Below, piece after piece: positions 14,479 to 57,844 of a stretch of 64,000 nt of DNA; within the stretch, counting starts at the first letter, position 1; the number at the start of each line of letters is the position of its first letter. The stretch is from Clostridia bacterium. GTDB taxonomy: Bacteria > Bacillota > Clostridia > UBA1212 > UBA1255. The notes below the pieces were generated by a model that was given only the letters and a program-made list of their open reading frames with translations, ran no database searches and was not told the origin of the DNA. The stretch spans positions 8,726-72,725 of the forward strand of contig JAFZSK010000083.1 in assembly GCA_017620915.1 (NCBI GenBank), read 5' to 3'. The translations under genes were made by a program, and so were the position numbers.

Positions 14479-14695
14479 GGTCAAGATCCCTCCTGCCTTT
14501 TGCGGCAGAGGATATTGTACCACATTTTGGGCAAATGGCAAAGGGCAATTCTAAAAGCAGTCGCTGCGAGTTCTTTTTCGTTTTGGTTGCATCATTCTCA
14601 TTCTTTGAGCCGGATTTGGTATAAAGAAGTTTGTTTCATCGAGTTTAATACCAGTTTTTACTAGCTCTCGCTCATTTTCAAAAACGCATAACCCA

Positions 14696-14935
14696 AATAA
14701 TGGTATAAAATCTTTGAATTAGAATATAATAATCCAGCCTCACGGAACTCCCGTGGTATAAAGACCTTAATTAAAGATATTATATCCTATTCGCACCAGA
14801 TTAAACAGAGCCGACAATCGAGAGAAGGCGCCCAATTTGGTATTAAAATTCAAACAATCGTTACTTTTATCCAAAAAAGGAATAATCAAAACTCATGAAC
14901 TGCCTGAGAAGGCGCCTGGCGTAGTATAAAACCGT
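14696..14935. repeat. array of ~84-bp repeat units (cores at 14701, 14754, 14838 and 14921: GC-rich stem then TGGTAT[A/T]AAA), related to the inverted array at 56690-56882
   Basis: Direct reading: cacggaactcccgTGGTATAAAG; gagaaggcgcccaattTGGTATTAAAA; gagaaggcgcctggcgtaGTATAAAAC. Cores are spaced 84 and 83 bp apart. Confidence 0.7.
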
Positions 14936-15033
14936 ATAAAAGAAGCTGGATTGTCCAAATCAAGGAGATTGATCCCTATTGAATAAGTCGCGTGTTTTGG
15001 GTAAAATTGACAGCAGAAGGGGAGGTTTGACCC

Positions 15034-15630
15034 ATGACCATACTGGTAGATATGGACGATACGATCGAGTGCCTGCTGGCCGCGTGGGTCAAGGTGCTTA
15101 ACGAGCGTTACGGCCGGAGCGTCACTACGGAAGACGTGACCGACTGGGATGTGACAAAGGCATATCCCGGGCTGGCAAAGGAGCAGGTATACGGCGTGCT
15201 GAACGAAGAGGGGTTCTGGGGGCGCGTTGACCCCATGCCCGGCGCGGCCGAAGCGCTCCAAAGATTTATCGCGAATGGGCACGAGGTGTATATTGTCACC
15301 GCCACCGCGTACGAATCCGTGGCCGAAAAAATGCGCGACCTGCTGTTCCGGTGGTTCCCGTTCATTGGCTGGGGCAACGTCATCATTGCCGCCCGCAAGC
15401 AGATGATCCGCGCAGACGTGCTGATCGACGACGCGGTGCACAATATGATCGGCGGACAATACGCCAAGATCCTGGTCGACGCCCCGTACAACCGCGGTTT
15501 CGACGCCGCGGCGGAAGGCATGATCAGGGTATACTCATGGGAAGAGATAGAGAAGGAGATCGACCGCCTCGCGGCAGAAAAGGCGGCAGAGCGTCCGAAA
15601 CGGCGCCGGTCAAGACGGAAGGACAGATAA
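15034..15630 (+). CDS. HAD-superfamily 5'(3')-deoxyribonucleotidase-like (NT5C family) protein
   Basis: Starts MTILVDMDDT (DxD HAD motif I) and resembles NT5C. RBS AGGGGAGG is 8 nt upstream. Basic C-terminal tail. Confidence 0.7.
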   Translation: MTILVDMDDTIECLLAAWVKVLNERYGRSVTTEDVTDWDVTKAYPGLAKEQVYGVLNEEGFWGRVDPMPGAAEALQRFIANGHEVYIVTATAYESVAEKMRDLLFRWFPFIGWGNVIIAARKQMIRADVLIDDAVHNMIGGQYAKILVDAPYNRGFDAAAEGMIRVYSWEEIEKEIDRLAAEKAAERPKRRRSRRKDR

Positions 15631-17388: not shown

Positions 17389-17419
17389 TATTGCAACATG
17401 ACATACAATATGCTATAAT
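17389..17419 (+). promoter_or_regulatory. sigma-70-like promoter for the toxin-antitoxin operon (TTGCAA-19-TATAAT)
   Basis: TTGCAA at 17389-94 and TATAAT at 17414-19, upstream of RBS AGGAGG at 17431-36. The spacer is somewhat long. Confidence 0.4.
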
Positions 17420-17444
17420 TAAGCGCCGAAAGGAGGTGCTTATT

Positions 17445-17762
17445 GTGGCAATTAAAAGTTCTAATGTGATTGCAAGAGTTGAGCCGGAAATCAAAGAAGA
17501 GGCAGAAGCCATCCTCGCGAAACTGGGTATTTCTGCATCTAATGGGATTAATATGTTCTATAGACAGATCATTTTATGGAAAGGTCTTCCTTTCCGGCCG
17601 GCGATCCCGGTCAGCAGACCGGTTGCTCTTGAGGAGATGACTCGAGAAGAGTTTGATGAAAAAATGACACGCGGTATTGCTCAGGCTAAAGCCGGCGAAG
17701 GAGTTCCTGCGGATGAATTCTTTGCGGCATTAAAGCAGGAAATCGATCAAACACATGTCTGA
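17445..17762 (+). CDS. type II antitoxin, RelB/DinJ family
   Basis: VAIKSSNVIARVEPEIKEEAEAILAKLGISASNGINMFYRQI resembles DinJ/RelB. GTG start lies 8 nt after AGGAGG. The gene overlaps the toxin gene by 8 nt. Confidence 0.8.
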   Translation: MAIKSSNVIARVEPEIKEEAEAILAKLGISASNGINMFYRQIILWKGLPFRPAIPVSRPVALEEMTREEFDEKMTRGIAQAKAGEGVPADEFFAALKQEIDQTHV

Positions 17763-18108
17763 CGTTTATGATCTGATAATCTTGCCTGAAGCTGCGCAAG
17801 ATATTCGCAAAACTGTATTATATATCGCAAATGAATTGGCCGCTCCGCAGGCAGCGCTTAATTTGCAGAACAAAATAGAAAAAGTAATCAGATCGCTGGC
17901 ATATATGCCGAATAGGATCAGGCTGGTCGAAGAGCAGCCATGGAAGGACGCCGGAATCAGAAGAACAAGAGCGGGGAACTATTATATTTATTTTTTTGTT
18001 GATGAGACAAAAATGACCGTTTATGTCAACGCTGTTATATATTCCGGACGAGATCAAACAAGCCAGATAGCATCTTTCACTTGCAATCCGTGTCCGGATA
18101 CGCTATAA
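17755..18108 (+). CDS. type II toxin, ParE/RelE family
   Basis: 117 aa, resembling ParE/RelE (…LYIANELAAPQAALNLQNKIEKVIRSLAYMPNRIRLVEE…YYIYFFVDETKMTVYVNAVIYSGRD). It is translationally coupled to the antitoxin. Confidence 0.8.
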   Translation: MSDVYDLIILPEAAQDIRKTVLYIANELAAPQAALNLQNKIEKVIRSLAYMPNRIRLVEEQPWKDAGIRRTRAGNYYIYFFVDETKMTVYVNAVIYSGRDQTSQIASFTCNPCPDTL

Positions 18109-18118
18109 TCACTATACA

Positions 18119-18248
18119 CCGGCTCTTAAAAGTACTGTCGGGTCTTACGCAATGGAATTTTGTGAACCCCGTCAGGTCCGGGAGGAAGCAGCGGTAAGCG
18201 AACCCTTTCGTGTGCCGTAAGTCCCCCGGCAGTACTTTCAGGAGCCGG
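18119..18248 (+). ncRNA. ffs: signal recognition particle RNA (4.5S/scRNA, ffs), small type
   Basis: Contains the domain IV consensus GTCAGGTCCGGGAGGAAGCAGC. Terminal helix: ccggctc…gagccgg and agtactg…cagtact. A TATAAT -10 box at 18104-09 precedes it and a TTTT tract follows at 18249-52. The position upstream of dnaX is the conserved Firmicute arrangement. Confidence 0.8.
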
Positions 18249-23724: not shown

Positions 23725-24309
23725 TTGTCCTTTACTCTAAGGGGGCAAAGGACCGCTTTGACTGACAGAGATATTATCGAGATGCTCGAAAACCGAAACG
23801 AGGAAGCGCTCCGGCTGCTGCAGGAGAAGTACGGGCCGTACTGTTACGCGATCGCATTCAACGTACTTTCCGACGCGGAAGACGCCAAGGAGATCGTCAA
23901 TGACTCGTTTCTGGACCTCTGGAACAGCATTCCGCCCGCAAAACCGGAGCGGCTCCACGCGTATCTGGGCACTATTGTCCGCCACAACGCCATCAATCTG
24001 TATCATAAACGCCAGACCAATAAAAACCGCGTCATGAGCTCGGCGATTCCGCTCGAGGAGGCAACGGAAAAAACCTACACCGACGAAAACGCCATCAGCC
24101 ACCTGGTGATCGGCGCGGCCATGGACCGGTTTCTGGAGAGCCTGTCGGAGAAAAACCGGCAGGTGTTCGTCGCGCGTTTTTATTATAATTCGTCAATTGA
24201 GGATATTGCCCGTACGCTGGATATGCCCGCCGGCTCGGTGAAGAGCATCATCCACCGCACGAAAAAGGCGCTGAAGGAGTTTCTGGATAAGGAGGGGATC
24301 GACGTATGA
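23725..24309 (+). CDS. ECF-type RNA polymerase sigma-70 factor
   Basis: Region-2-like EIVNDSFLDLWN and region-4 HTH SIEDIARTLDMPAGSVKSIIHRTKKAL. The start is uncertain among TTG 23725, TTG 23758 and ATG 23781. Confidence 0.7.
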   Translation: MSFTLRGQRTALTDRDIIEMLENRNEEALRLLQEKYGPYCYAIAFNVLSDAEDAKEIVNDSFLDLWNSIPPAKPERLHAYLGTIVRHNAINLYHKRQTNKNRVMSSAIPLEEATEKTYTDENAISHLVIGAAMDRFLESLSEKNRQVFVARFYYNSSIEDIARTLDMPAGSVKSIIHRTKKALKEFLDKEGIDV

Positions 24310-25979
24310 AAGATCAACTTATCCAAAAGCTTATGGCAGAGATCTCCGACAAATACGTGGCGGAGTATCGCGCGACGCTGGACCGGAAGGCGGCAGAGCA
24401 AGCGGCTGCTGCGGCAAACGCGGCGGACAATTCCGATGCGGCCGCGGGCGGCAGCGCTGCAGTGCGCAGCTCGGCAAAGCGCGGGGCTTACCGCGGCAGC
24501 AGTCGCGTGCCGGTGATCTGGCGCAGTATCGCGGCGGGTGTTGTCATTTTGGTATTCCTGGCGGGCGGCCTGCTGCTGGGCAAGTATCTGCACAAGAATA
24601 ACAGCCCTGAACCGGCGGCAACGGCGGAGATTACGCAGATGCCGATCGAAACGCCGACGCAGGCGGTCAACGAAACCGCGGACGTCACGGCGACGCCGGC
24701 TGCCACGCCTGCGGGAGCAACTGCCACGCCGAGCGTTACCGCTGCGCCGGACGCCACGTCTGTTTTAACGCCCGAAATTACCGCCACGCCTGCTGCTACG
24801 CCCGTGCCAACCGGGATGCCGGACGTTTCCGGCACAGCGCCTGACGGGACGCCGATAGTTCCCACCGCGTCTGTCGTTACACCGACCGCTATGCCGGACG
24901 CCACGTCTGCCGCCACTCCGGAGGCTCCTACCGCGACGTCGGCAGATACGTCCACTGCCACGCCTGCAGCCACGCCTGCGGTCACTCCGACCGCTACGCC
25001 GACCGGATCCGTGTACGCGACGGCTAAGCTGGAAGCGTGGACTATTGCCGCAAGCGGAGTCGCGGAAGAACCGAGTTTTTCGGACGTTGACGAAACAAGC
25101 CGGATTTTCTTCGTAACGTCGTTAGACCGGGACGTGGGTATCTGCGGATATGCGTACCGGAGCGATTCGCCCCTCAAAGAAGTTTATTATCGCATAGGCA
25201 GCGATCCGACGGAGCACGTCTGCCGGGGACCGCTGTATGCACGGAACGATATTGCCACCGCCGCCGGCTTCGGCACCGAAAACGCGCAGAGCTCCGGCTT
25301 CGGCGGGAACGCGGAGAGCGAGTATATGTTATTGTCCGACCTGCCGGCGTCGAACCGGATCACAACGCTCCACTTTATGGCGCGATTTGAAAACGGCGCC
25401 GAGACGGAGCTTGGCTCGGTGCTGTATATTTGCTGCGACGTGATTGCTGACAACGGACAAATGTATTATGAATGTATCTGGCAGGATTCCGGCGAAAAAG
25501 TCAAAAGCATAAAGGCTCCCGGCCGAACGTTGTATATCTTCAGCGGGCTCGACTATGACAACATCTACAGTACCGTAATTAAGAGCGATATCTCGTCAAA
25601 TCGGGAATATGACTTTCTGGCGTTCTACGACGGCGAGCCTCGTGCGTTTAACGTGGGCAATATCGATCTGAGCCTGTTCAGCTATTGCGAGCTCGATTAC
25701 GTGACGCACGCGGATTTTGACCCGTACGATACGGCGACAATGAGCGAAAGCGCGTTCCTGGCGCTGGGGACAACGGACGCGCTGCCCGGCTGCGGCGCGG
25801 ATGGCCCGCACAGGGAGGGGCTGCTGGCCACGGCGGCCTGCGCTTCGTACGATGCGGACAACGTCCGCACGGCGACGATCTCGCTTGCCGACGTGGATTA
25901 CGACGGCAACGTCTGGCTGTCGGCGTACCTGCGCCCCGGCATGCCGGTCTTCGTGACCGAGATACGGTTTTACTTTTGA
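24306..25979 (+). CDS. putative membrane-anchored anti-sigma factor with Thr/Pro/Ala-rich linker and unknown C-terminal extracytoplasmic domain
   Basis: ATGA overlap with the sigma gene. Single TM (VIWRSIAAGVVILVFLAGGLLLG), about 130 aa of T/P/A low-complexity sequence, then a ~300-aa domain. The role is inferred from genomic context only. Confidence 0.5.
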   Translation: MKDQLIQKLMAEISDKYVAEYRATLDRKAAEQAAAAANAADNSDAAAGGSAAVRSSAKRGAYRGSSRVPVIWRSIAAGVVILVFLAGGLLLGKYLHKNNSPEPAATAEITQMPIETPTQAVNETADVTATPAATPAGATATPSVTAAPDATSVLTPEITATPAATPVPTGMPDVSGTAPDGTPIVPTASVVTPTAMPDATSAATPEAPTATSADTSTATPAATPAVTPTATPTGSVYATAKLEAWTIAASGVAEEPSFSDVDETSRIFFVTSLDRDVGICGYAYRSDSPLKEVYYRIGSDPTEHVCRGPLYARNDIATAAGFGTENAQSSGFGGNAESEYMLLSDLPASNRITTLHFMARFENGAETELGSVLYICCDVIADNGQMYYECIWQDSGEKVKSIKAPGRTLYIFSGLDYDNIYSTVIKSDISSNREYDFLAFYDGEPRAFNVGNIDLSLFSYCELDYVTHADFDPYDTATMSESAFLALGTTDALPGCGADGPHREGLLATAACASYDADNVRTATISLADVDYDGNVWLSAYLRPGMPVFVTEIRFYF

Positions 25980-28992: not shown

Positions 28993-30681
28993 ATGTCCGA
29001 AGAATTGTTGAATTTGATCGATGAGCGCTTTGAGATAAGCGACGGCTGGCTTATGGAGTACAGGGGAAACGACAGAGTCTTAGTTGTACCCGAAGGTGTG
29101 ACAGCTATTTCCCGCAATGTCTTCGAATACGCATTTGAAATGGAAGCGATCTATCTCCCGCGCAGTATCCGCAGTATCAGCTGCCCGTTCGATCAGTACA
29201 ACATCAACTTCAAATACAGGCTCAGGGAAGTGCACGTTCCGGATATTGAGACCTGGCTGCGCATCGACTTTGACGATGCTTATTCAAACTTTCTCTCGTT
29301 ACGTCATGAGTGTGATTCCGAAAGCGAGTACATACAGCCGGAACTGTTCATCGGAGAGGCCCCGCTGGTCGACCTTGTCGTTCCCGAAAGCGTCAAAAGC
29401 GTAAAAAAATACTCGTTTTCGAATTGCGGGACGCTCCGTTCGCTGGTGATCGGGAACGGCGTTGAAGAGATCGGCAAAGGCGCGTTCTGCAATTGCGATA
29501 ATCTGGAGACCGTGATCCTGCCGGAAAAGAATTGCCGTCTGGCTCCGTATTTGTCCCTTTTTGACGGCATTTTTTGGGGCTGCGGGAAATTGACCACGGT
29601 GGAACTGCCGGAAGACTTAACCGAAATACCGGAAGACGCGTTCGCGGGATGCAGATCGCTGAGATCAATCAAACTGCCGGAAACGCTCAGATCTATCGGG
29701 CGCAGCGCGCTCCAGTGCGACGCGCTGGAGCGGCTGGAACTTCCCGACAGCCTGGAAAAGATCGGAACGGACGCGTTTGTTTTTGCCACCTGGGGGGTAT
29801 CGGCTGCTGATTACGAAAAATTGTTCAACGTGTACGACAACGCCCACTATCTGGGAAGTGCCCGCGATCCGTATATGGTGCTCGTGAAGGCCAAAAACAA
29901 GGAAATAACCGCATGCACCGTCGCGGCGGGGACAAAATTTATTATGTCGAATGCCTTTAGAGACTGTACTAAGTTGTGCGAGGTATCGATTCCGGATTCG
30001 GTGGCGTCCATTGGCGAGGATGCGTTTTGGGGCTGCAGCAGTTTTGACCAGCCCGTGCTGGACAACATCGGGATCGCCGTGAAGACCGCCGACAATACCG
30101 CGGGGGAAAAAGTATTTGTACTGACCGCGGAAAAGCAGTGGTGCTACCGGACATATGCCGATGCAGACGGCAATATCCGGGAAACGCTGGTGAGCAGTTT
30201 TGACCCCATGTCTGCCGCTAATAATGAATTGATCTGGGGCTTGGTGGCGCGCCTGCAGTCGAGTAATTGTGAAAACGGAACGCACGGGTACGTTCAGTTC
30301 GATCTGCGCGACTATGGCGGCCCGGATAAGTTCGGCCGGAAAAGCATTATCGAACTGTCGGCAATGCTGGAACCGCTGCCGGCGGGCGATGAGCTCCGGC
30401 GTTTCGTTAATGCGTTTTTCCCAAAAGAAGGCGAACTCGCAGCTGACAACGCTTCGGAGCTGGACAGAACTGTCTGCACGGAGATCATGGCGCGTTTTGA
30501 CGGTTATTCGGAGCCGGAACTGGATAAAGCGTCCATTCGCGCGCTGTTAGATAAGGACGTGCTTACGTACGAAGGAATACGGCTGTACAGAGAATTGCTG
30601 AAAAACAGCTGGCGCTGGCGGAAAGCCTCCGATGAAAAGGGAGGAGGGGCTGAAAGTGGACAAGAATTCTTTCCTTTTTGA
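28993..30681 (+). CDS. BspA-type leucine-rich repeat (LRR_5) protein, no signal peptide
   Basis: Repeated …I(P/G)xxAFxxCxxLxx(I/V)xLPxxLxxIG… units typical of Treponema/Bacteroides BspA-like LRRs. Confidence 0.7.
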   Translation: MSEELLNLIDERFEISDGWLMEYRGNDRVLVVPEGVTAISRNVFEYAFEMEAIYLPRSIRSISCPFDQYNINFKYRLREVHVPDIETWLRIDFDDAYSNFLSLRHECDSESEYIQPELFIGEAPLVDLVVPESVKSVKKYSFSNCGTLRSLVIGNGVEEIGKGAFCNCDNLETVILPEKNCRLAPYLSLFDGIFWGCGKLTTVELPEDLTEIPEDAFAGCRSLRSIKLPETLRSIGRSALQCDALERLELPDSLEKIGTDAFVFATWGVSAADYEKLFNVYDNAHYLGSARDPYMVLVKAKNKEITACTVAAGTKFIMSNAFRDCTKLCEVSIPDSVASIGEDAFWGCSSFDQPVLDNIGIAVKTADNTAGEKVFVLTAEKQWCYRTYADADGNIRETLVSSFDPMSAANNELIWGLVARLQSSNCENGTHGYVQFDLRDYGGPDKFGRKSIIELSAMLEPLPAGDELRRFVNAFFPKEGELAADNASELDRTVCTEIMARFDGYSEPELDKASIRALLDKDVLTYEGIRLYRELLKNSWRWRKASDEKGGGAESGQEFFPF

Positions 30682-31168
30682 GATCGTTGACGGCGGGGAT
30701 TTCGGCAGCCTCGTTACTTACTTTTACATTTCAGAAGAAAAAGTGATCAGCTGCTTTCAACGGGACGCTTTTCAGTTCGGCGAATGTAGCGAGGAACTTC
30801 AGATCTGCCGGATTGGCCGAAAACCGGCGCTGTTTGACCGCTGCATCGAATGGCTGCGGAATTATTTGTCCGACGAGGCCCATCTGGTCGAACTCGCGGA
30901 GGGCGAACCATATTCCGCAGCGGTCATTTACTCGTTCTGCGTTGACGATGAAGATATTGAAAACACCATAACGGACAGAGCGGCCATGCGCCTGCCTTTT
31001 CCGCGGCCCAAGCAAAACACGTTTGCGGCCGGCGATATTCCGCTGATCCTGGCATACTTATTGCCCGAAGAACAGCGGCCGTGGCCATTGTCCGACTATT
31101 TGAGCGAACAGGGTATTGCCCCCGTCGAAGTTCCGGAGCGGACGAAGGCGCTGCTGGACCGCGCGTAA
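30656..31168 (+). CDS. hypothetical protein, short paralog of 32179-33336
   Basis: GTG 30656 follows RBS GGGAGGAGGGG; the track start at 30632 would overlap the LRR gene by 50 nt. Shares FLFEI…YFYIS…RYDEKPxLFDRCxEWLxNYLSDxAxL…GDxPLxLAYLLP…AxGxVPERTxALLDRA with the 385-aa ORF. Confidence 0.55.
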   Translation: MDKNSFLFEIVDGGDFGSLVTYFYISEEKVISCFQRDAFQFGECSEELQICRIGRKPALFDRCIEWLRNYLSDEAHLVELAEGEPYSAAVIYSFCVDDEDIENTITDRAAMRLPFPRPKQNTFAAGDIPLILAYLLPEEQRPWPLSDYLSEQGIAPVEVPERTKALLDRA

Positions 31169-32178: not shown

Positions 32179-33336
32179 ATGGATAAGAGAAATCTACTTT
32201 TTGAGATAGAAGACGAACAGAAATATTCGGGCAATCATACGTATTTCTACATTTCCGGCGAAAAGGCGATCAGCTATTCCACGGACTGGGATCTGTGCGG
32301 GCAATGGGAAGCGCTCGAGATCTGCCGGTACGATGAAAAACCGCCGCTGTTTGACCGCTGCGAGGAATGGCTGCTGAATTATTTGTCCGACGACGCGAAC
32401 CTGATCGAACGCGACGACAGCGAACGGATCTCCGCCGGGATCCTTATGGCGATATGCGTTGACGATGACGACCTCGAAGATGTCATTATGGACAGCGAGG
32501 TCATGCACCGGCGATATTTATCGCTGTTTGACGACTGCCAAAACACTTTCGCGACCGGCGATGTCCCGCTGGTCCTGGCGTATTTATTGCCCGGGAAACA
32601 GTGGCCCGAACCGGTGCGCCAGTATCTGCGCGCGCAGGGTATTGACGCCGGCGAAGTTCCGGAGCGTACGCGGGCCCTGCTGGATCGCGCGCAACCCAAC
32701 CCCTCCGTTACGCCGTGCGGGAAGCTGTGCTTCGGTGCGTATCCGGCGGCGCGGGCGGAGGACAATGCACTTTCGCGCAACCCCGATGATTCCGACAGCA
32801 TCGTCAACGGGTTTAAGTCCGCACCGGTGTCGTGGACGGCATTCCCGAACGGGGACGAAGTGGATCTGATCTCCGACTGCATCATCGATATGATGCCGTT
32901 TCCGGACGGACAAGAGCCCGACAGTTATATTAGTGACGTTTACCTGAACCGGAGCGTGCAGAGCCGGCTCTTCAGCGAAGCCGAGAAACAGCTGCTGATC
33001 TCCGCTTCCGACATCGTGCTCGAGCAGCCGCCGAACTATTTCGACAGCGAAGGCAACGTTATCGAGGAACTGTTTTCGCCGGAAGTCTTAAAGGGGTATC
33101 TGACGCAGCCGTCCCGGTCGAATGTTAAGTATTATTTGCGGCAACGATCCATGGTGCCCCCCGTTGCCACCGATTTCGCCGTCGCGGCGGGCACAACGCT
33201 GAAAAACGATCGAATCGCGACAATTTCCGATGCTTTTGTTCTGCCTGCCGATGTGCCGATGTGCGGCATCCGCCCTATGATCCGCATGTCTTCGTCAACA
33301 TTTGCTGAGCTTTCCCGCGCCGGCCATCATCGTTAA
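32179..33336 (+). CDS. hypothetical protein, long paralog (N-terminal ~170 aa homologous to 30656-31168 plus ~210-aa C-terminal extension)
   Basis: Conserved N-terminal block as listed for the short paralog. RBS AAGAGGAG precedes the ATG. Confidence 0.6.
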   Translation: MDKRNLLFEIEDEQKYSGNHTYFYISGEKAISYSTDWDLCGQWEALEICRYDEKPPLFDRCEEWLLNYLSDDANLIERDDSERISAGILMAICVDDDDLEDVIMDSEVMHRRYLSLFDDCQNTFATGDVPLVLAYLLPGKQWPEPVRQYLRAQGIDAGEVPERTRALLDRAQPNPSVTPCGKLCFGAYPAARAEDNALSRNPDDSDSIVNGFKSAPVSWTAFPNGDEVDLISDCIIDMMPFPDGQEPDSYISDVYLNRSVQSRLFSEAEKQLLISASDIVLEQPPNYFDSEGNVIEELFSPEVLKGYLTQPSRSNVKYYLRQRSMVPPVATDFAVAAGTTLKNDRIATISDAFVLPADVPMCGIRPMIRMSSSTFAELSRAGHHR

Positions 33337-33355
33337 TAGGGAGAATCAATATAAA

Positions 33356-34102
33356 ATGGAACAATTAAAATACGAAATTCTAGATAATCTGAATGATTAC
33401 ACGGGTAAAAAAACTACGTATGATTCAATTTTGTGTGATCATCCGTTATTTCACGGAACGACTCTATTTGCGATTGAAGCAAGTGCGGAAGTGGTTTCTG
33501 CTTTCTGCAATCACTGTAAAATCGTTCTTAGGAAAGCAAAGAAATACACCCTTTCTTTAAACAATAGAGAAGCATTTTATGAATCAGCTGAACACTACTG
33601 TCAGAAAAGCAAAATTGCTCCATTCTGGCATTTTATCGAACGTTTTGAAGAGTTGGAAGATTATGGATATCAATACGGTGATTTCTATGTCACAACAAAC
33701 TATCTGCTCGCTCTTGAATACAGTAAGAATGCAGGTGGCGAATTGGGTAACCTTGCTCATAATGCTGAGCTCTTGCTAGAAGACCTTGGGATTGATTTAG
33801 ACCTGCAGGAATCAATATCAGTTTTGAAAAAAAACTACCCTCTTTTTTCAGAAAGCGAGCGGGTCATTCTTATTGCAGACAAGATTCCCTTCGACGATCT
33901 CAAATACGAAAGGGGCTACACTCTCAACAAAGATTATATTGATTATTTATATGAGACGGATTTTAACACGAATCTTTCTTTCCGGTTGTTACATCCGGAA
34001 AAATATCAGCTTAAACTGATACGCAAGCCTCTGTTCAAGGAGGGGATCAGTTGTTTTACAGATATAAAAGATGTGGATAGTTTCTTGAGGACAAGTACAT
34101 AA
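33356..34102 (+). CDS. hypothetical protein (first gene of AT-rich island)
   Basis: GC content drops sharply at ~33340. 248-aa ORF starting MEQLKYEIL (the track start at 33302 overlaps the upstream gene). No family recognised. Confidence 0.5.
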   Translation: MEQLKYEILDNLNDYTGKKTTYDSILCDHPLFHGTTLFAIEASAEVVSAFCNHCKIVLRKAKKYTLSLNNREAFYESAEHYCQKSKIAPFWHFIERFEELEDYGYQYGDFYVTTNYLLALEYSKNAGGELGNLAHNAELLLEDLGIDLDLQESISVLKKNYPLFSESERVILIADKIPFDDLKYERGYTLNKDYIDYLYETDFNTNLSFRLLHPEKYQLKLIRKPLFKEGISCFTDIKDVDSFLRTST

Positions 34103-34160
34103 TACATGGTCGATTAAAGAATAAACATATAAAGAATGTTATTAGAAGGGAAAAGAGTAT

Positions 34161-35534
34161 ATGAGTTTGATTAATAAAATAAAGAATATAGAAAATCCTC
34201 CGCTAAGCAATACTTTGGGTAACTATGGTTCGGGCTCACACAATACGATAGACGAGTTTTTCGATTATTATATAAAACCCAAATTACCCCAGCCTTGTGT
34301 TGTTAGAAAGTGGCATACGCTTTTAATGGACTACACCGATGAAGCCAATTTTAACACATTGAGTTGCTGTTTAAGATATGGTAATAATGGTAGTGCCAAA
34401 CCATCCGTGCACGGGGAAAGTGGTTATTACAAATTAAGACGCGGGTGGTTAACTAAAAATGTAGAGGATGAATTTGAATTTTTTTATGCTGATAACTTTT
34501 TCTCGAGCTTTATTTATAAAATGGCGTTAGATGGTTATTGTCCAAGCATCAAAGAATTCAGAGACGCTTTTTTAACACATTCATTCCCATATGGCTTTGG
34601 TTTCATGGTTGACAAAAAAGTAAATGAATTCAAGGGCGTTGTCGTTGCGACTGCTTCTGAACCCGGGTTTTTAGGGGAATATAAACTATCTCATATTTTT
34701 GATGCCGGAAACAATTTTGAAGTAAACGGAGATGTTTATAGTGGTAAATACGCAGATCAACAATTATCTTTGAAGTATTATGATATTGGCCATTCTAATG
34801 ATTTTTTAAGTAATCCGAACAAAGTTAGAAAAATGACAATATCAAATGATGCAAAAAAAGTAATTGTTGCAAAGTTTTTGAGATTCGCGCATCCGTTTAA
34901 TTATTTTTTGACGCCTTCAAAGAAAAAACACAGTTGTGCTGTTAAGGTTTATAAGAATGATATTGGCGAAGATCCGAGAATGATTAGTTATGTTAAAGCA
35001 TATCTTAAAAAAACTTACCCGACGGAGTACCGTGAGTTTTTAGACAGAATAATGTGGTATCAAGATCCAAACGAACCAAAACCAAATGGATCAGTTTATA
35101 TTGGTATTCATTATGACATCAATAATGTGAACAGAACAGTCACAACTATAAAGAATAAATCGACTGGCAAAAAAGGAAAAGGTCATTCAAACTCGAACAA
35201 TCCAGTCAATTCAAAATCATCAGCGGCAGTTCAAACAAACGGCACATGCAAAATCGGCGAACTGGCCAGGACGGTTTTAAGAGCGATTCTTGAATCCGGA
35301 AAAGCATCAAAAGCAGAAATTAAAGATATGTTGACATTTAATTACAGCAAGGTTACATTTGGTCTGCAGTATCCGCTATTAGTGAAAAGCGGAAGTACAT
35401 TTGATGCCAAACGGTATTATGTAAAGCCTCTTACTATTTACAACAAGGACTATTATCTCTGCTCGCAATGGTTTGAAACCAAGGCAAATAATGACCGGCC
35501 TTTATTGGAGAAATGGATAAAAAATCACCCATAA
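34161..35534 (+). CDS. hypothetical protein (AT-rich island, 457 aa)
   Basis: RBS GAAGGGA precedes the ATG. Lys/Asn/Tyr-rich composition typical of low-GC foreign DNA. No family recognised. Confidence 0.55.
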   Translation: MSLINKIKNIENPPLSNTLGNYGSGSHNTIDEFFDYYIKPKLPQPCVVRKWHTLLMDYTDEANFNTLSCCLRYGNNGSAKPSVHGESGYYKLRRGWLTKNVEDEFEFFYADNFFSSFIYKMALDGYCPSIKEFRDAFLTHSFPYGFGFMVDKKVNEFKGVVVATASEPGFLGEYKLSHIFDAGNNFEVNGDVYSGKYADQQLSLKYYDIGHSNDFLSNPNKVRKMTISNDAKKVIVAKFLRFAHPFNYFLTPSKKKHSCAVKVYKNDIGEDPRMISYVKAYLKKTYPTEYREFLDRIMWYQDPNEPKPNGSVYIGIHYDINNVNRTVTTIKNKSTGKKGKGHSNSNNPVNSKSSAAVQTNGTCKIGELARTVLRAILESGKASKAEIKDMLTFNYSKVTFGLQYPLLVKSGSTFDAKRYYVKPLTIYNKDYYLCSQWFETKANNDRPLLEKWIKNHP

Positions 35535-35563
35535 GGCTGATTTAATAAGACAATGAATTGATA

Positions 35564-35596
35564 CAAGAGCGAGAGTGTTGTGGCTCTCGCTCTTGC
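35564..35596. terminator. bidirectional intrinsic terminator hairpin between convergent genes
   Basis: Perfect 12-bp stem caagagcgagag / ctctcgctcttg with loop tgttgtgg. The flanking sequence is A/T-rich. Confidence 0.65.
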
Positions 35597-35639
35597 GTAT
35601 TTATATGATTATACAGATAATAACAAATGGATGAATCAA

Positions 35640-47400: not shown

Positions 47401-47433
47401 ATGGAACTAGGCAAAACCGTAAATTCTAAATAA
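47401..47433 (+). CDS. 10-codon mini-ORF (MELGKTVNSK) with strong RBS, possible leader peptide
   Basis: RBS GAAGGGAGGG is 6 nt upstream. The TAA stop overlaps the first base of hairpin 1 of the downstream array. A TTGACG-18-GATAAT promoter sits at 47343-47372. Confidence 0.3.
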   Translation: MELGKTVNSK

Positions 47434-47610
47434 TAAGACAATATGGCTTGTTTGGGCGATTTTGTCTTATACATGGCGCTGTCTTTCGGGCAATTCTCAC
47501 CGGAAAAATAAGACATTTTTGCTCGTTTGCTTTTTATAGTCTTATTTTCGATGTGTTGTCATGCCAAAAAAGCAGACAATAACGCTCGTTTGAGAATGAT
47601 TGTCTTATAA
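47433..47610 (+). repeat. three tandem palindromic hairpin elements (half-site ATAAGACAAT…ATTGTCTTAT) with ~70-nt periodicity
   Basis: 47433-47470: ataagacaat…ttgtcttat. 47506-47546: aataagaca…agtcttatt. 47572-47609: cagacaat…attgtcttat. The central gctcgtttg motif is conserved. Confidence 0.7.
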
Positions 47611-47654: not shown

Positions 47655-48326
47655 ATGGAATATAGAACGTTATTTAATGAAAGAGAAAAAGAACTTAAGA
47701 CGCTAAGAAAAAAGGTTCTTAATCGTCTTAAAAATGTGCCAAAAGGGTATGACGAGAGGGCACTGACAGCAATTGACGCAGAATTGAGAGTGATCGAAAG
47801 CTGCGGGAGGCATTGGAGCGAGTTGCCCGCGGTGGAAGTCGAAAAAGTGTATGAGAGTATTGCCGCCGAACTGCAGGAACTGGTAACACCGTTGACCGAA
47901 ACTGATCAACACTTTGCGAAACGCTGGCAGGAGGCGGAGTTCGAGCCGCTGAAGTATAGAGAAGAGGATAAAATACACGCCACAGAACGAGGTGAACTGG
48001 TAAGGTCAAAGTCTGAAGAGATAATCGCAAATCTGCTCTTTCAGAAAGGGGTGCCGTATAAGTATGAATGCCCGTTGAAAGTGTGCGGGCGAACGGTTTA
48101 TCCGGATTTTACAGTGCTGGATGTGAAAAAACGCCGGGAAGTGTACTGGGATCATTTAGGAGTTGCGGATGACCGCAATTATGCAATCAGAGCGATGTGG
48201 AAACTTCAGGCCTACAGTTTTGCCGGTCTGATCACGCAAAACCGAGTGATCATTACGGCAGAAACGCAGAGTGATCCGCTTGATTACATCGGGATCCGTC
48301 AAATCATCAATGAACTGGCGGCGTAA
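47655..48326 (+). CDS. hypothetical protein (possible restriction-endonuclease-like fold)
   Basis: 223 aa. RBS AAAGGGGAAG precedes the ATG. …VYPDFTVLD…EVYWDHLG loosely resembles a PD-(D/E)xK core; this is weak. Confidence 0.45.
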   Translation: MEYRTLFNEREKELKTLRKKVLNRLKNVPKGYDERALTAIDAELRVIESCGRHWSELPAVEVEKVYESIAAELQELVTPLTETDQHFAKRWQEAEFEPLKYREEDKIHATERGELVRSKSEEIIANLLFQKGVPYKYECPLKVCGRTVYPDFTVLDVKKRREVYWDHLGVADDRNYAIRAMWKLQAYSFAGLITQNRVIITAETQSDPLDYIGIRQIINELAA

Positions 48327-48559: not shown

Positions 48560-48656
48560 GTTGATCTCCTTAAAAAAGCAGGTGCGCAGGCCGCTGGCCG
48601 TTGACTCCGGCGCTGCACACCGTTGATTCAATTGGCAGTATGAGTCGCTGTCAAAA

Positions 48657-49182
48657 TCAGTTCGCGAAATGCGTGTGCTTGACCTGCCACTGCTTCAGCT
48701 TGATGGAGACCCACAAACTGTAGATGCCGCAGGTGATAAGAGAGAGCAGGGCCCATTTGATCCATTGACCGAAAAGGCTGCCGCCCGTGCCGTCGAATCT
48801 GAGCCGGCGGCCGTTGATCACGGTGTGCTGGGTCTCCCAGCGGTAGATACGGCAGAATGCCCAGGGGGCGTAGATGCTGAGTAATAAGGCAGAGCAGGAA
48901 GTTCACGATCGAGATGCCGATCTGCTGGCCCAGCGTGCCGTCAAAGAAGGATTCGGTGGAATTAACATTGACCGTCGGCGGCGTATTGTACGTATTGTAC
49001 GTGTTGTACGTAGGCTGCGGGTTGGGGTTGTACGCGGGCTGCGGATTGGGATTGTACGCAGGCTGCGGATTGGGGGCGGCTTCTCTGTTGACCGGAGCGG
49101 GTTCGGTGAGACGGGCGCCGCAGTTCATGCAGAATACCGAGTTGTCAGCACTGGAAGCGCCGCAGTTGGGACAAGTTTTCAT
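48657..49182 (-). pseudogene. zinc-ribbon / DUF-type membrane protein gene interrupted by a frameshift at a G5/C5 homopolymer (~48866-48870)
   Basis: N-terminus: MKTCPNCG…CMNCG zinc ribbon plus NPQPAY repeats. After the homopolymer the frame from the start decays into non-protein-like sequence. The frame shifted by one base, which is open upstream only to a TGA at ~48906, reads [53 protein letters not shown]… to a stop at 48657. Confidence 0.5.
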
Positions 49183-56486: not shown

Positions 56487-56689
56487 ACCGTATGGCTTCC
56501 TTGGTCTTATGCAGATTGCGCGCGGGCCGCCGTGCGCGGCATACCCCCGCAACCTATTATATTACACCAATTAGCCGCGGTTGTCAAAGCGGAAGGCACT
56601 GCTCCCGATTTTGCAGCGGGATAGAGCCACGCGACTGACAGCGCCCGGTCGTTTAACATGCGGATTAGGACAAATATCTTTATTTCTTG

Positions 56690-56882
56690 TTCTTTTATAC
56701 CATGCCGGGCGCCGTCTAAGGCAATTTGCAAACCTTGTTTTATTGCCCATTCGGATAAAACTATAATTAAATAAACATTTGATACCAGATTGGGCGCCTT
56801 CTCGCGTTTGCCGGCTCTATCGAATCTTGAGCGATTAGTATTAAATGGGTTTAGATTCATTTGTATATACCACGAGCGTTCC
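56690..56882. repeat. array of three ~84-bp repeat units, collinear with 14738-14935 but in inverted orientation
   Basis: Reverse complements: cggaacgctcgTGGTATATA (~56863-80), gagaaggcgcccaatcTGGTATCAAA (~56781-806) and gacggcgcccggcaTGGTATAAAAG (~56692-716). Spacing is 83 and 88 bp. Confidence 0.7.
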
Positions 56883-57106
56883 GAAAGATAGGATTAATTT
56901 AATCTAGGTGTGTTTTTTTATGCCATTATTTCAATTTCGCGTTTTTAAAAATGAGCGAGAGCGAAGAAAAAATGGTATTAAACTAAGAGAGTTAAGTCAG
57001 TTTATGCCAAATACAGCCCCAAAAGAGAAAATGAGGCCGCAAAAATGGAAAAACGAGCGGATATGCAAAACGGAAGGAACGCTGTCGGTCGCGCGGCTAA
57101 GGTATT

Positions 57107-57844
57107 CTATGAAATCGGGGGCAGAGCCGAGTCTTCAACGTTTTGTTGACTGCGCGAAATGAAGATCAGTTCCGCAACGGCGCCGGCGATGATGGCAATG
57201 AGCGAGAACCATTGACCGTGGGAGAGACCGAACCAGTCTTTGGCCGTTGACCGCAGGAACTCGATGAAGAAGCGGGCAATGCCGTAGCTCAGCAGGAATC
57301 TGCCGTACAGCCGGCCGCTGTTGCCCGGGCGCGACTCGGTCCGGAGCAGCCACACCAGTATCAACGCGTCGCACACGAGCTCGATCAGCTGCGTGGGGAC
57401 CGAGATGTCAAAGTTTTTAAAGAAGAATATGCGGCCGCCGCAGCAGCCGTTGCAGAAGCAGCCGATGCGGATCGTGCCGAGCATGGCGACAACGCACACC
57501 GCCGAATTGTCCAGGCTTTCCGCCGGCGACAATTTGAACGCTTTGCCCACGAGCAGCATCAGCAGCGGCACCAGCAGCGCCGCGCCGAAGAACGAGAAGC
57601 CGCCGATCGTGAGTCCGTGCTTCAGCACATATTTGAAGCATTCAATAACATACAATATTTTGCATCCCAGGAGGCCGGCGATCAGCACCGCAGTAGCGAA
57701 CAGCACTGATTTCGGTTTGCTCAACCGGTACATAGCGCGTCTTTTCGGGAGCAGCATTAAAACTACCATTGCCACATAGCCCAGAAACATGGCAAGGTAG
57801 TACATGGATATTTTTAGTGAACCTATATAGATGTACGGCAGCAT
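57107..57844 (-). CDS. lgt: prolipoprotein diacylglyceryl transferase
   Basis: YGIARFFIEFLR Lgt signature and a multi-TM hydrophobic profile. Confidence 0.8.
   Translation of the reverse strand: MLPYIYIGSLKISMYYLAMFLGYVAMVVLMLLPKRRAMYRLSKPKSVLFATAVLIAGLLGCKILYVIECFKYVLKHGLTIGGFSFFGAALLVPLLMLLVGKAFKLSPAESLDNSAVCVVAMLGTIRIGCFCNGCCGGRIFFFKNFDISVPTQLIELVCDALILVWLLRTESRPGNSGRLYGRFLLSYGIARFFIEFLRSTAKDWFGLSHGQWFSLIAIIAGAVAELIFISRSQQNVEDSALPPIS

Follow-up and report, generated by a model that had tools for sequence, protein, structure and literature searches.

Inverted copies of a dispersed non-coding repeat with helically phased internal sites in an uncultured Clostridia lineage

A 64,000-nucleotide stretch of Clostridia bacterium DNA (contig JAFZSK010000083.1, positions 8,726 to 72,725; hereafter the window) carries similar tandem arrays in two AT-rich intergenic regions that lie about 42 kb apart in opposite orientation, raising the question of whether such arrays are promoters, regulator-binding sites, small RNAs, substrates for inversion or the remains of a mobile element. 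Here, 14550-14963 on the + strand (copy A) and 56595-57128 on the - strand (copy B) are identified as collinear homologues in inverted orientation, and they are best read as diverged copies of a previously undescribed ~530-bp non-coding, AT-rich dispersed repeat; the kind of feature is ordinary and its interior is unusually regular. The data favour, with a probability of roughly 0.65, a dispersed repeat family of uncultured, Oscillospiraceae-like Clostridia that resembles MITEs (miniature transposable elements bounded by inverted repeats), in which A and B would be old, diverged copies that were mobilised in trans and whose phased sites would be bound by protein. The observation made in a preliminary description of the arrays is confirmed as real, and the feature is larger than was described there.

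Extent and architecture of the repeat

Direct comparison of A with B by BLASTN gave 70% identity across 363 bp (E 1e-37), placing the similarity beyond the short chance-level cores to which, as the preliminary description had allowed, it might have been limited. Alignment of 14480-15040 (+) with 57120-56560 (-) in MAFFT yielded ~400 bp of unbroken collinear homology with a mean column identity of ~77%, in which the longest run identical in both copies is 15 bp, and in a repeat search of the whole window the best two inverted pairs both fall within these regions. The window has 27 occurrences of the box1 motif TGGTATAAA with no more than one mismatch, compared with 8.3 +/- 2.9 in shuffled sequence, and 12 of the 27 lie within A and B. 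Reading of both regions, together with the alignment, bore out the motif positions and the inverted collinear arrangement given earlier, and the three unit matches proposed between the regions were recovered, the first with two mismatches, the second with the single mismatch claimed and the third (14906 against 56718-56693) with about 5 of 26 positions mismatched. Three units per region, 83-88 bp apart, had been described; each copy in fact has five same-strand box1 sites, spaced by 84/53/84/84 bp in A and 84/53/85/85 bp in B, so that one gap is of 53 bp. The ~84-bp period does correspond to about eight helical turns (84 bp is 8.0 turns of 10.5 bp), and both arrays do stand 5' of a gene, namely the NT5C/HAD and Mbeg1-like (DUF2974) gene for A and typA for B.

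Five-way alignments, in which B and two further members of the family (L051 and L052) are homologous outward on both sides of the array, revealed a complete element of ~535 bp. Its GC-rich, imperfect terminal inverted repeats of ~66 bp, starting GGCTCTGCCCCCGATTTC, enclose a ~390-bp AT-rich interior. The score of the end-to-end inverted alignment of B (~66 nt) was reached in none of 2000 shuffles and that of L051 in 6 of 2000. The elements measured are 414-537 bp long with a GC content of 0.36-0.42, against 0.54 for the window, and no open frame is conserved among copies, the longest frames differing in both strand and frame. Copy A corresponds to approximately positions 77-466 of B, i.e. the AT-rich interior, since comparison with an element-free relative (L055) sets its edges at 14550-14963. 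An inverted-end test against shuffles found no terminal inverted repeats in A, which would either have lost them or never had them. Candidate degenerate ends at ~14503 and ~15023 were rejected, as they are native flank conserved in L055 and their score is at chance level.

Each interior unit is bipartite: box1, TGGTATAAA(A), is followed after ~19 bp by box2 (consensus TTATCCTAATC), in part an inverted copy of box1, forming a 38-bp unit that can be written TGGTATAAAA-N18-TTATCCTAATC. Box2 starts 28-29 bp after the start of box1, and in unit 1 it reads TTTAATACCA, which is clearly box1 in inverted form. The units all have the same orientation, with GCTCTCGCTCATTTT and GAGAAGGCGCCCAAT boxes between them, and the imperfectly palindromic ~38-bp units form regular clusters, the palindromes being perfect in a sister subfamily (L049-type, described below) and partial in A and B. 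Spacings of 84, 53 and 84-85 bp in elements of the B type and of 95 and 74 bp in the L049-type equal 8.0, 5.05, 8.0-8.1, 9.05 and 7.05 turns of 10.5 bp, respectively. Site spacing is identical in the four copies with a whole interior, and the remaining member, L053, lacks an 83-bp stretch, approximately one period.

Across five copies, pairwise identity is 0.88 in box1 against 0.61 in the remaining interior columns (Mann-Whitney p = 5e-8). The GCTCTCGCTCATTTT box does not vary among the four B-type copies in which the relevant stretch is kept, the L053 deletion leaving its first seven bases only, and variants of it are seen again in the sister subfamily and other mosaic repeats. The inverted ends, where present, are ~0.8 identical (counted from the alignment), and 4 of 10 ends are missing or degenerate compared with 2 of 25 internal sites. 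Furthermore, AA/TT dinucleotides show a periodicity peak at exactly 10.5 bp in every copy of both subfamilies (z = 6-19 against shuffles), and in A the other harmonics of 84 bp carry no power. When normalised, the periodicity of A lies above the 99th percentile of 350-bp windows in the 64-kb window and that of B near the 95th; as some coding stretches of the window score as high, the phasing is supporting evidence only. An array of protein-binding sites at integral helical turns is a candidate reading that is compatible with these features of the sequence.

A metagenome scan with GAGAAGGCGCCCAATNTNNNNNNAAA, a box common to all variants then seen, gave six loci, which all come from a single set of NCBI metagenome assemblies. 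One of them (L050) is locus B itself on a contig that begins inside the element, and L051, L052 and L053 are further collinear members at unrelated loci, the gene downstream of L051 being class II aldolase-like and that downstream of L052 rhamnosidase-like; L052 has no 3' end and L053 no 5' end. B-type elements are found at five loci and L049-type elements at four (L049, L013/L015, L054 and L056), with five internal units in A, B, L051 and L052, four in L053 and three in the L049-type. The L049-type is 436 bp long and has a terminal inverted repeat that is perfect over 20 bp, GCTCTACTCCCGAAATCGTA, with a start resembling that of B; it carries both conserved boxes and three near-perfect 38-bp palindromes, ATAAACAAAA-N18-TTTTGTTTA, all three with the 28-bp half-site offset. 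Its copies are 96-100% identical across the four loci, which argues for recent spread, and those of the B-type are only 70-77% identical, which marks this subfamily as old. The contig ends of L013, L015 and L050 fall within elements and that of L061 within a related mosaic repeat, as is expected of multi-copy DNA. BLASTN against phages and plasmids, as well as scans of viral sequences for the inverted ends and the conserved box, gave no match, and none of the 29 matches of the 15-mer GAGAAGGCGCCCAAT in viral contigs lies in an element-like context.

Related strains also contain dense mosaics of short modules (L056 5850-6489; L058 1206-1505; L049 1700-1827), comprising ~44-bp CCTCATTTAC(C/T)CA(A/G)G units, additional CTCGCTCATTTT and AGAAGGCGCCC boxes and a GGATAAAAA-N14-ATTTTATCC palindrome, often adjoining L049-type ends, which suggests that the lineage holds a larger repeat repertoire. 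In L013 (1-100), an L049-type element is cut at its third palindrome and joined to unrelated sequence with a long hairpin (CTGTCAGTCAAGGA…TCCTTGACAGACAG), at which the contig ends; this sequence may be the end of another repeat or insertion sequence (IS).

Copy A lies between a divergent URO-D-family gene (start 14478, -) and a + strand operon that encodes an NT5C/HAD nucleotidase and the Mbeg1-like (DUF2974) protein, followed by RelB/ParE, the signal recognition particle (SRP) RNA (18136-18234) and dnaX. A relative whose NT5C is 93% identical (L055) shares both flanks, URO-D and NT5C, and their promoters with the window and has ~23 unrelated bp in place of 14550-14963; a more distant relative (L056) has no element at this position and keeps the HAD promoter, and the element is also absent from a paralogous NT5C locus (P0123). 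The RelB/ParE toxin-antitoxin pair (17391-18108) sits between the Mbeg1-like gene and the SRP RNA. In L055 (6424-7668) ParE is a 40-aa remnant followed by TnpV and DUF6809 genes in place of ffs-dnaX, and the different gene content indicates that this junction is variable as well.

Copy B has the lgt stop codon on one side and the typA promoter on the other, both genes being on the - strand, and the TypA homologues fall in uncultured Clostridia/Oscillospiraceae metagenome bins. Among strains whose TypA is at least 98% identical, the site upstream of the typA -35 box has at least four allelic states: the B-type element in the window; the 436-bp L049-type element in opposite orientation in L013 and L015; another mosaic repeat with CTCGCTCATTTTC, AGAAGGCGCCC and CCTCATTTACCCAAG units in L058 and L061; and no element in L059, L014 and L060, where lgt continues at its 3' end into the -35 box. 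In relatives whose TypA is 95% and 90% identical, the intergenic region is short and other genes lie upstream. In the window, the final six codons of lgt and its stop (…A L P P I S *; 57107-57131, -) come from the 5' inverted repeat of B; in element-free strains lgt extends through the typA -35 box (…ELIYFDKRG*; L059 2840-2930, L014 1190-1260), and most of lgt is deleted in L014 and L060. As close relatives lack them, A and B are dispensable for the neighbouring genes. The coordinates of the elements and their parts are collected in Table 1.

Table 1. Positions in the window of the two repeat copies, their sites and boxes, adjacent promoters and the open reading frames (ORFs) of an AT-rich island.
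Feature	Position	Strand	Sequence	Remarks
Copy B, full-length element	56595-57128	-		534 bp, GC 0.42; five-way alignments, nhmmer match to model positions 1-535, open-frame check
Copy A, AT-rich interior only	14550-14963	+		414 bp, GC 0.36; BLASTN, edges from element-free relative L055
B 5' terminal inverted repeat	57111-57128	-	GGCTCTGCCCCCGATTTC	provides final codons and stop of lgt
B 3' terminal inverted repeat	56595-56612	-	AAAATCGGGAGCAGTGCC	6 bp upstream of typA -35 box at its end
B 5' subterminal inverted repeat	57080-57098	-	AGCCGCGCGACCGACAGCG	19 nt, 89% complementary; two compensatory pairs across copies
B 3' subterminal inverted repeat	56625-56643	-	CGCTGTCAGTCGCGTGGCT	partner of 57080-57098
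A site 1 (box1)	14617-14625	+	TGGTATAAA	
A site 2 (box1)	14701-14709	+	TGGTATAAA	
A site 3 (box1)	14754-14762	+	TGGTATAAA	
A site 4 (box1)	14838-14846	+	TGGTATTAA	
A site 5 (box1)	14922-14930	+	TAGTATAAA	
B site 1 (box1)	57001-57009	-	TGGCATAAA	start 57009
B site 2 (box1)	56917-56925	-	TGGCATAAA	start 56925
B site 3 (box1)	56864-56872	-	TGGTATATA	start 56872
B site 4 (box1)	56779-56787	-	TGGTATCAA	start 56787
B site 5 (box1)	56694-56702	-	TGGTATAAA	start 56702
A unit 1 second half-site	14644-14653	+	TTTAATACCA	inverted copy of box1; matching core begins 28 bp past box1 start (14617 to 14645)
A second half-sites, units 2-5	14727-14737, 14782-14792, 14867-14877, 14951-14961	+	consensus TTATCCTAATC	
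B unit 1 second half-site	56973-56982	-	TTTAATACCA	
B second half-sites, units 2-5	56887-56897, 56833-56843, 56748-56758, 56663-56673	-		
Box between units, A	14664-14678	+	GCTCTCGCTCATTTT	
Box between units, B	56948-56962	-	GCTCTCGCTCATTTT	
Box between units, A	14822-14836	+	GAGAAGGCGCCCAAT	directly 5' of site 4
Second GGCGCC box, A	14906-14916	+		5' of site 5
Box between units, B	56789-56803	-	GAGAAGGCGCCCAAT	
Second GGCGCC box, B	56708-56718	-		
Sigma-70 promoter of HAD operon	14979-15007	+	TTGAAT-17-TAAAAT	outside array; consensus scan
Sigma-70 promoter of URO-D gene	14541-14514	-	TTGCCA-16-TACAAT	outside array; consensus scan
Sigma-70 promoter of typA	56587-56559	-	TTGACA-17-TAATAT	outside array; consensus scan
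AT-rich island ORFs	32179-33336, 33302-34102, 34161-35534	+		
AT-rich island ORF	35640-36968	-		

Origin and function of the repeat

By the usual criteria (PMC3049150) the element is MITE-like, being non-coding, AT-rich, dispersed, polymorphic and bounded by terminal inverted repeats; the family is new and the type of element already known. A MITE-like remnant was one of several alternatives offered in the preliminary description, and it is this one that the ~66-bp inverted ends, the occurrence at five loci at least and the presence/absence polymorphism uphold. The homology, the inverted ends, the dispersion and polymorphism, the conserved phased sites and the absence of a coding or RNA signal are all direct observations. 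The elements would have spread as non-autonomous units moved in trans by a transposase with specificity for the inverted ends, and their modules would later have been shuffled by recombination. The phased half-sites and the 10.5-bp A/T phasing are predicted to mark binding sites on one face of the helix, probably for the transposase or for a host DNA-bending protein.

Several results weigh against a MITE-like origin. No convincing target-site duplication was found at any copy that has both ends: B and L049 are flanked by no direct repeat and L051 has a possible 3-bp TCT only, the copies being old. There is no clean empty site either, as L055 and L059 differ from the window by replacement or deletion and not by precise excision. 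The window contains no transposase, integrase or recombinase gene, and no autonomous IS with matching ends was found in the window, in 224 kb of related loci or in the plasmid, phage and viral collections. The GGCTCT... start may resemble the ends of IS6, ISL3 or IS903. Only two copies lie within the 64-kb window, and a scan of GTDB species representatives with the exact pattern CTCGCTCATTTTNAAAAACG gave nine matches that are read as chance; the sole Oscillospiraceae match (L007) proved coding-like on inspection and the other eight, from unrelated phyla, were taken as chance uninspected. The 100% conservation of GAGAAGGCGCCCAAT is partly a matter of ascertainment, since GAGAAGGCGCCCAAT was the search pattern. 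Finally, A has no inverted ends, L052 no 3' end and L053 no 5' end, yet the internal array is present in five of five copies (in L053 minus about one period), and loss of the ends with retention of the array is more readily explained by selection on the interior than by simple decay of a transposon.

That the interior is better preserved and lies just upstream of -35 boxes also makes a regulatory function the main rival explanation. The AT-rich interior would then be a host cis-regulatory module, comprising five helically phased bipartite sites for a putative DNA-binding or DNA-bending protein, and the ends would be its vehicle or irrelevant. In keeping with this, box1 and GCTCTCGCTCATTTT are conserved at 0.88-1.00 across copies against 0.61 for the spacers, the integral-turn spacing is invariant in the whole-interior copies, the A/T phasing peaks at 10.5 bp, ends are lost more often than internal sites, and each copy lies close upstream of a gene start, B being 6 bp from the typA -35 box. 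However, the arrays are absent from close relatives with the same genes and promoters, the downstream genes (typA, NT5C/Mbeg1-like, aldolase-like and rhamnosidase-like) are functionally unrelated, no candidate regulator gene lies nearby, and the conservation is also explicable by master-copy lineages keeping cis-sites for mobilisation, all of which leaves a host module as a tentative and rather unlikely explanation. Equally tentative, and as a single joint claim, the interior could be a transposon-borne, exapted module, with ~390 bp of curved DNA and five one-face bipartite sites for a putative bending protein, brought to positions just 5' of the -35 boxes of several unrelated promoters and retained while the ends decay. 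The 28-bp half-site geometry is found in three places with different arms, TGGTATAAA in A and B, ATAAACAAAA in the sister subfamily and ATAAGACAAT in a separate array at 47433-47608. An exapted module, if real, would be a bacterial analogue of transposable-element-derived enhancers, with a family of cognate binders diversifying along with their sites. Inverted repeats of at least 17-20 bp around a ~0.5-kb segment directly upstream of genes could alternatively mark an inverton, in which a site-specific recombinase flips the 534-bp segment and so changes what faces the downstream gene; the related elements that occur in opposite orientations at the typA locus of different strains and the frequent contig breaks at element loci would fit. 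Those oppositely oriented elements belong to different subfamilies, though, and are not one segment flipped, no locus was found in more than one orientation, the assemblies of loci A and B all agree, and the L050 contig breaks mid-element and not at a repeat. With no recombinase gene in the window, no convincing promoter inside the element and no inverted repeats in copy A, an inverton is improbable. Inversion of the 42 kb between A and B, as had been suggested, is likewise unlikely given the 15-bp longest identical run, which is shorter than RecA-dependent recombination normally needs, and in the comparison of gene order all assemblies of both loci are arranged as in the window. The interval itself contains dnaX, ffs, ABC transporters, an ECF sigma factor, surface proteins, rubrerythrin, U32 peptidase, yceG/mltG and typA, and this gene content, with no transposase or integrase, indicates that it is chromosome and not a mobile element bounded by A and B. 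A composite transposon, Tn7- or Mu-like ends and prophage attachment sites bounding the 42 kb were rejected on the same grounds and because A and B are whole-length homologues rather than a left and a right end.

Transcriptional explanations are less probable still. The similarity of TGGTATAAA to TGnTATAAT had led to the proposal of phased promoter arrays, i.e. tandem extended -10 promoters that would provide five RNA-polymerase entry sites driving the downstream gene, and in A, B, L051 and L052 every site does point to the downstream gene, while native promoters of the lineage look alike, for example TGGTATAAT upstream of the L052 gene. Across the five members, however, 22 of 24 sites have another base in place of the T that an extended -10 promoter carries at position 6 of the -10 box (with A at position 2), two B sites start with CAT, and there is no -35 box, which usually lies 16-18 bp upstream; the consensus scan flags none of the TGGTATAAA sites and instead finds separate native promoters outside the elements (Table 1), of which those of typA and the HAD operon are conserved where elements are absent. 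The sister subfamily, moreover, shares the architecture with arms, ATAAACAAAA, that are not promoter-like, so that a promoter array is very improbable. Comparison by eye with the consensus sequences of sporulation-sigma, sigma-54 and ECF promoters gave no fit, and L051 and L052 do not share the GGAAC that precedes site 3. An oriC/DnaA-box cluster was dropped on inspection by eye, with a single 8-of-9 match (TTATCCAAA) and no dnaA context. The least probable explanation is that the repeats are structured non-coding RNA genes or cis-acting leaders with five hairpins, an extension of the small RNA family also suggested for the arrays. Every unit can be drawn as a hairpin, GGUAUAAAA...UUUUAUCC, and that of unit 1 is retained in five of five copies with one compensatory pair. 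Against this, A and B have no Rfam match at gathering thresholds and chance-level matches only at E up to 10, the SRP RNA (18136-18234) being the sole Rfam match in the window. The interior of A folds like its shuffles (z = -0.15), the z of -4.1 for full-length B is due to its inverted ends pairing with each other, and RNAalifold gives an unfavourable covariation term (+7.7, five sequences); unit arms are conserved in sequence and do not covary, loops are not conserved, and the consensus scan found no promoter or terminator bracketing the element.

Other features of the window

The separate array at 47433-47608 consists of three palindromes, ATAAGACAAT-N18-ATTGTCTTAT, in which the arms start at an offset of 28 bp and the units are spaced by 75 and 63 bp (~7 and ~6 helical turns), and nhmmer detected no homology between it and the A/B family. 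It lies just upstream of a 223-aa ORF (47655-48326, +) that has no Pfam, NCBIfam or PDB match and whose C-terminal half, by eye, looks like a PD-(D/E)xK nuclease (…YPDFTVLDVKK…WDHLG). The arms may resemble the TGTCYNNTA resolvase half-site.

An AT-rich island at 32179-36968 (GC 0.32-0.40 against 0.54 overall) contains four long ORFs without a Pfam match, the three tested also having no NCBIfam match, and has probably been acquired horizontally. The ORFs 30632-31168 and 32179-33336 are connected by two direct repeats (195 and 156 nt; 73-78% identity; ~1.52 kb apart) at 30801-31168 and 32318-32694, which are probably a duplicated domain or a paralogous gene segment. Three tandem 24-bp repeats (GTTGTACG.AGGCTGCGG.TTGGG; 49003-49074) inside a zinc-ribbon protein gene (48628-49182, -) may form a variable-number coding repeat. 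At 23725-25979, an extracytoplasmic function (ECF)-type sigma factor gene (23725-24309) precedes a 557-aa ORF without a Pfam match, probably an anti-sigma factor, which contains degenerate 25-29-bp repeats (24686-24981).

Relation to known repeat systems

The ends of Tn7 and Mu, sopC of the F plasmid and iteron arrays all repeat a short protein-binding site in the same orientation and at fixed spacing over a few hundred bp. The present family differs from transposon ends and from iteron or centromere arrays of this kind in that A and B are whole-length homologues, core genes lie between them and no transposase, Rep or Par is present.

Comparison with MITEs, including Correia elements (Neisseria), RUP (S. 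pneumoniae) and Nezha (cyanobacteria), followed the criteria summarised in PMC3049150. Like MITEs, members of the family are small (~0.44-0.53 kb), non-coding and AT-rich, have terminal inverted repeats that pair into a long stem, and are dispersed intergenically near gene starts with presence/absence between strains, one subfamily having near-identical copies at several loci. Unlike them, the family shows no target-site duplication and no partner IS was found for it, it exceeds most bacterial MITEs in size, and its interior is a regular, helically phased bipartite array that is kept better than the ends, which A does not have at all.

In composite architecture the closest parallel is the pneumococcal BOX element. 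BOX elements of Streptococcus pneumoniae and S. suis are boxA - boxB(n) - boxC composites with complementary end modules and a variable tandem array (PMC3049150), and the Clostridia family is similarly modular, with complementary terminal modules around tandem internal modules that vary in number (5, 4 or 3), a position upstream of genes and a tendency to be clustered or mixed with other repeat families. The likeness is architectural only, with zero sequence similarity; the family has an 84-bp period (53 bp once) and units that have diverged save for two short half-sites, whereas boxB is a 45-bp module in near-identical copies, and its host is an uncultured Clostridia lineage.

Bacterial interspersed mosaic elements (BIMEs) of Enterobacteria and Pseudomonas, built from repetitive extragenic palindromes (REPs), are described in PMC2817692 and PMC3333891 as protein-binding platforms and as extragenic mosaics of imperfect palindromic units of ~35-40 bp with conserved linkers and regular spacing. 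Such features are shared with the family, and its module shuffling is reminiscent of the re-assortment of BIME modules between loci. The family nevertheless differs in that its units have one orientation and do not alternate, are AT-rich and not GC-rich, have no 5' GTAG signature and are bracketed by long inverted repeats; no REP-associated tyrosine (Y1) transposase (RAYT) gene is present in the window and the copy number appears low, REPs numbering more than 100 per genome.

Small mosaic repeats are almost unannotated in uncultured gut Clostridia, where they break metagenome assemblies, create differences between strains immediately 5' of core genes, typA among them, and can alter the ends of genes, as in lgt. 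Recognition of the family avoids misreading such regions as promoters, small RNAs or transposon boundaries. Furthermore, if its internal sites bind a host protein, the family would offer a tractable bacterial case in which a regulatory or architectural module is spread by mobile DNA.

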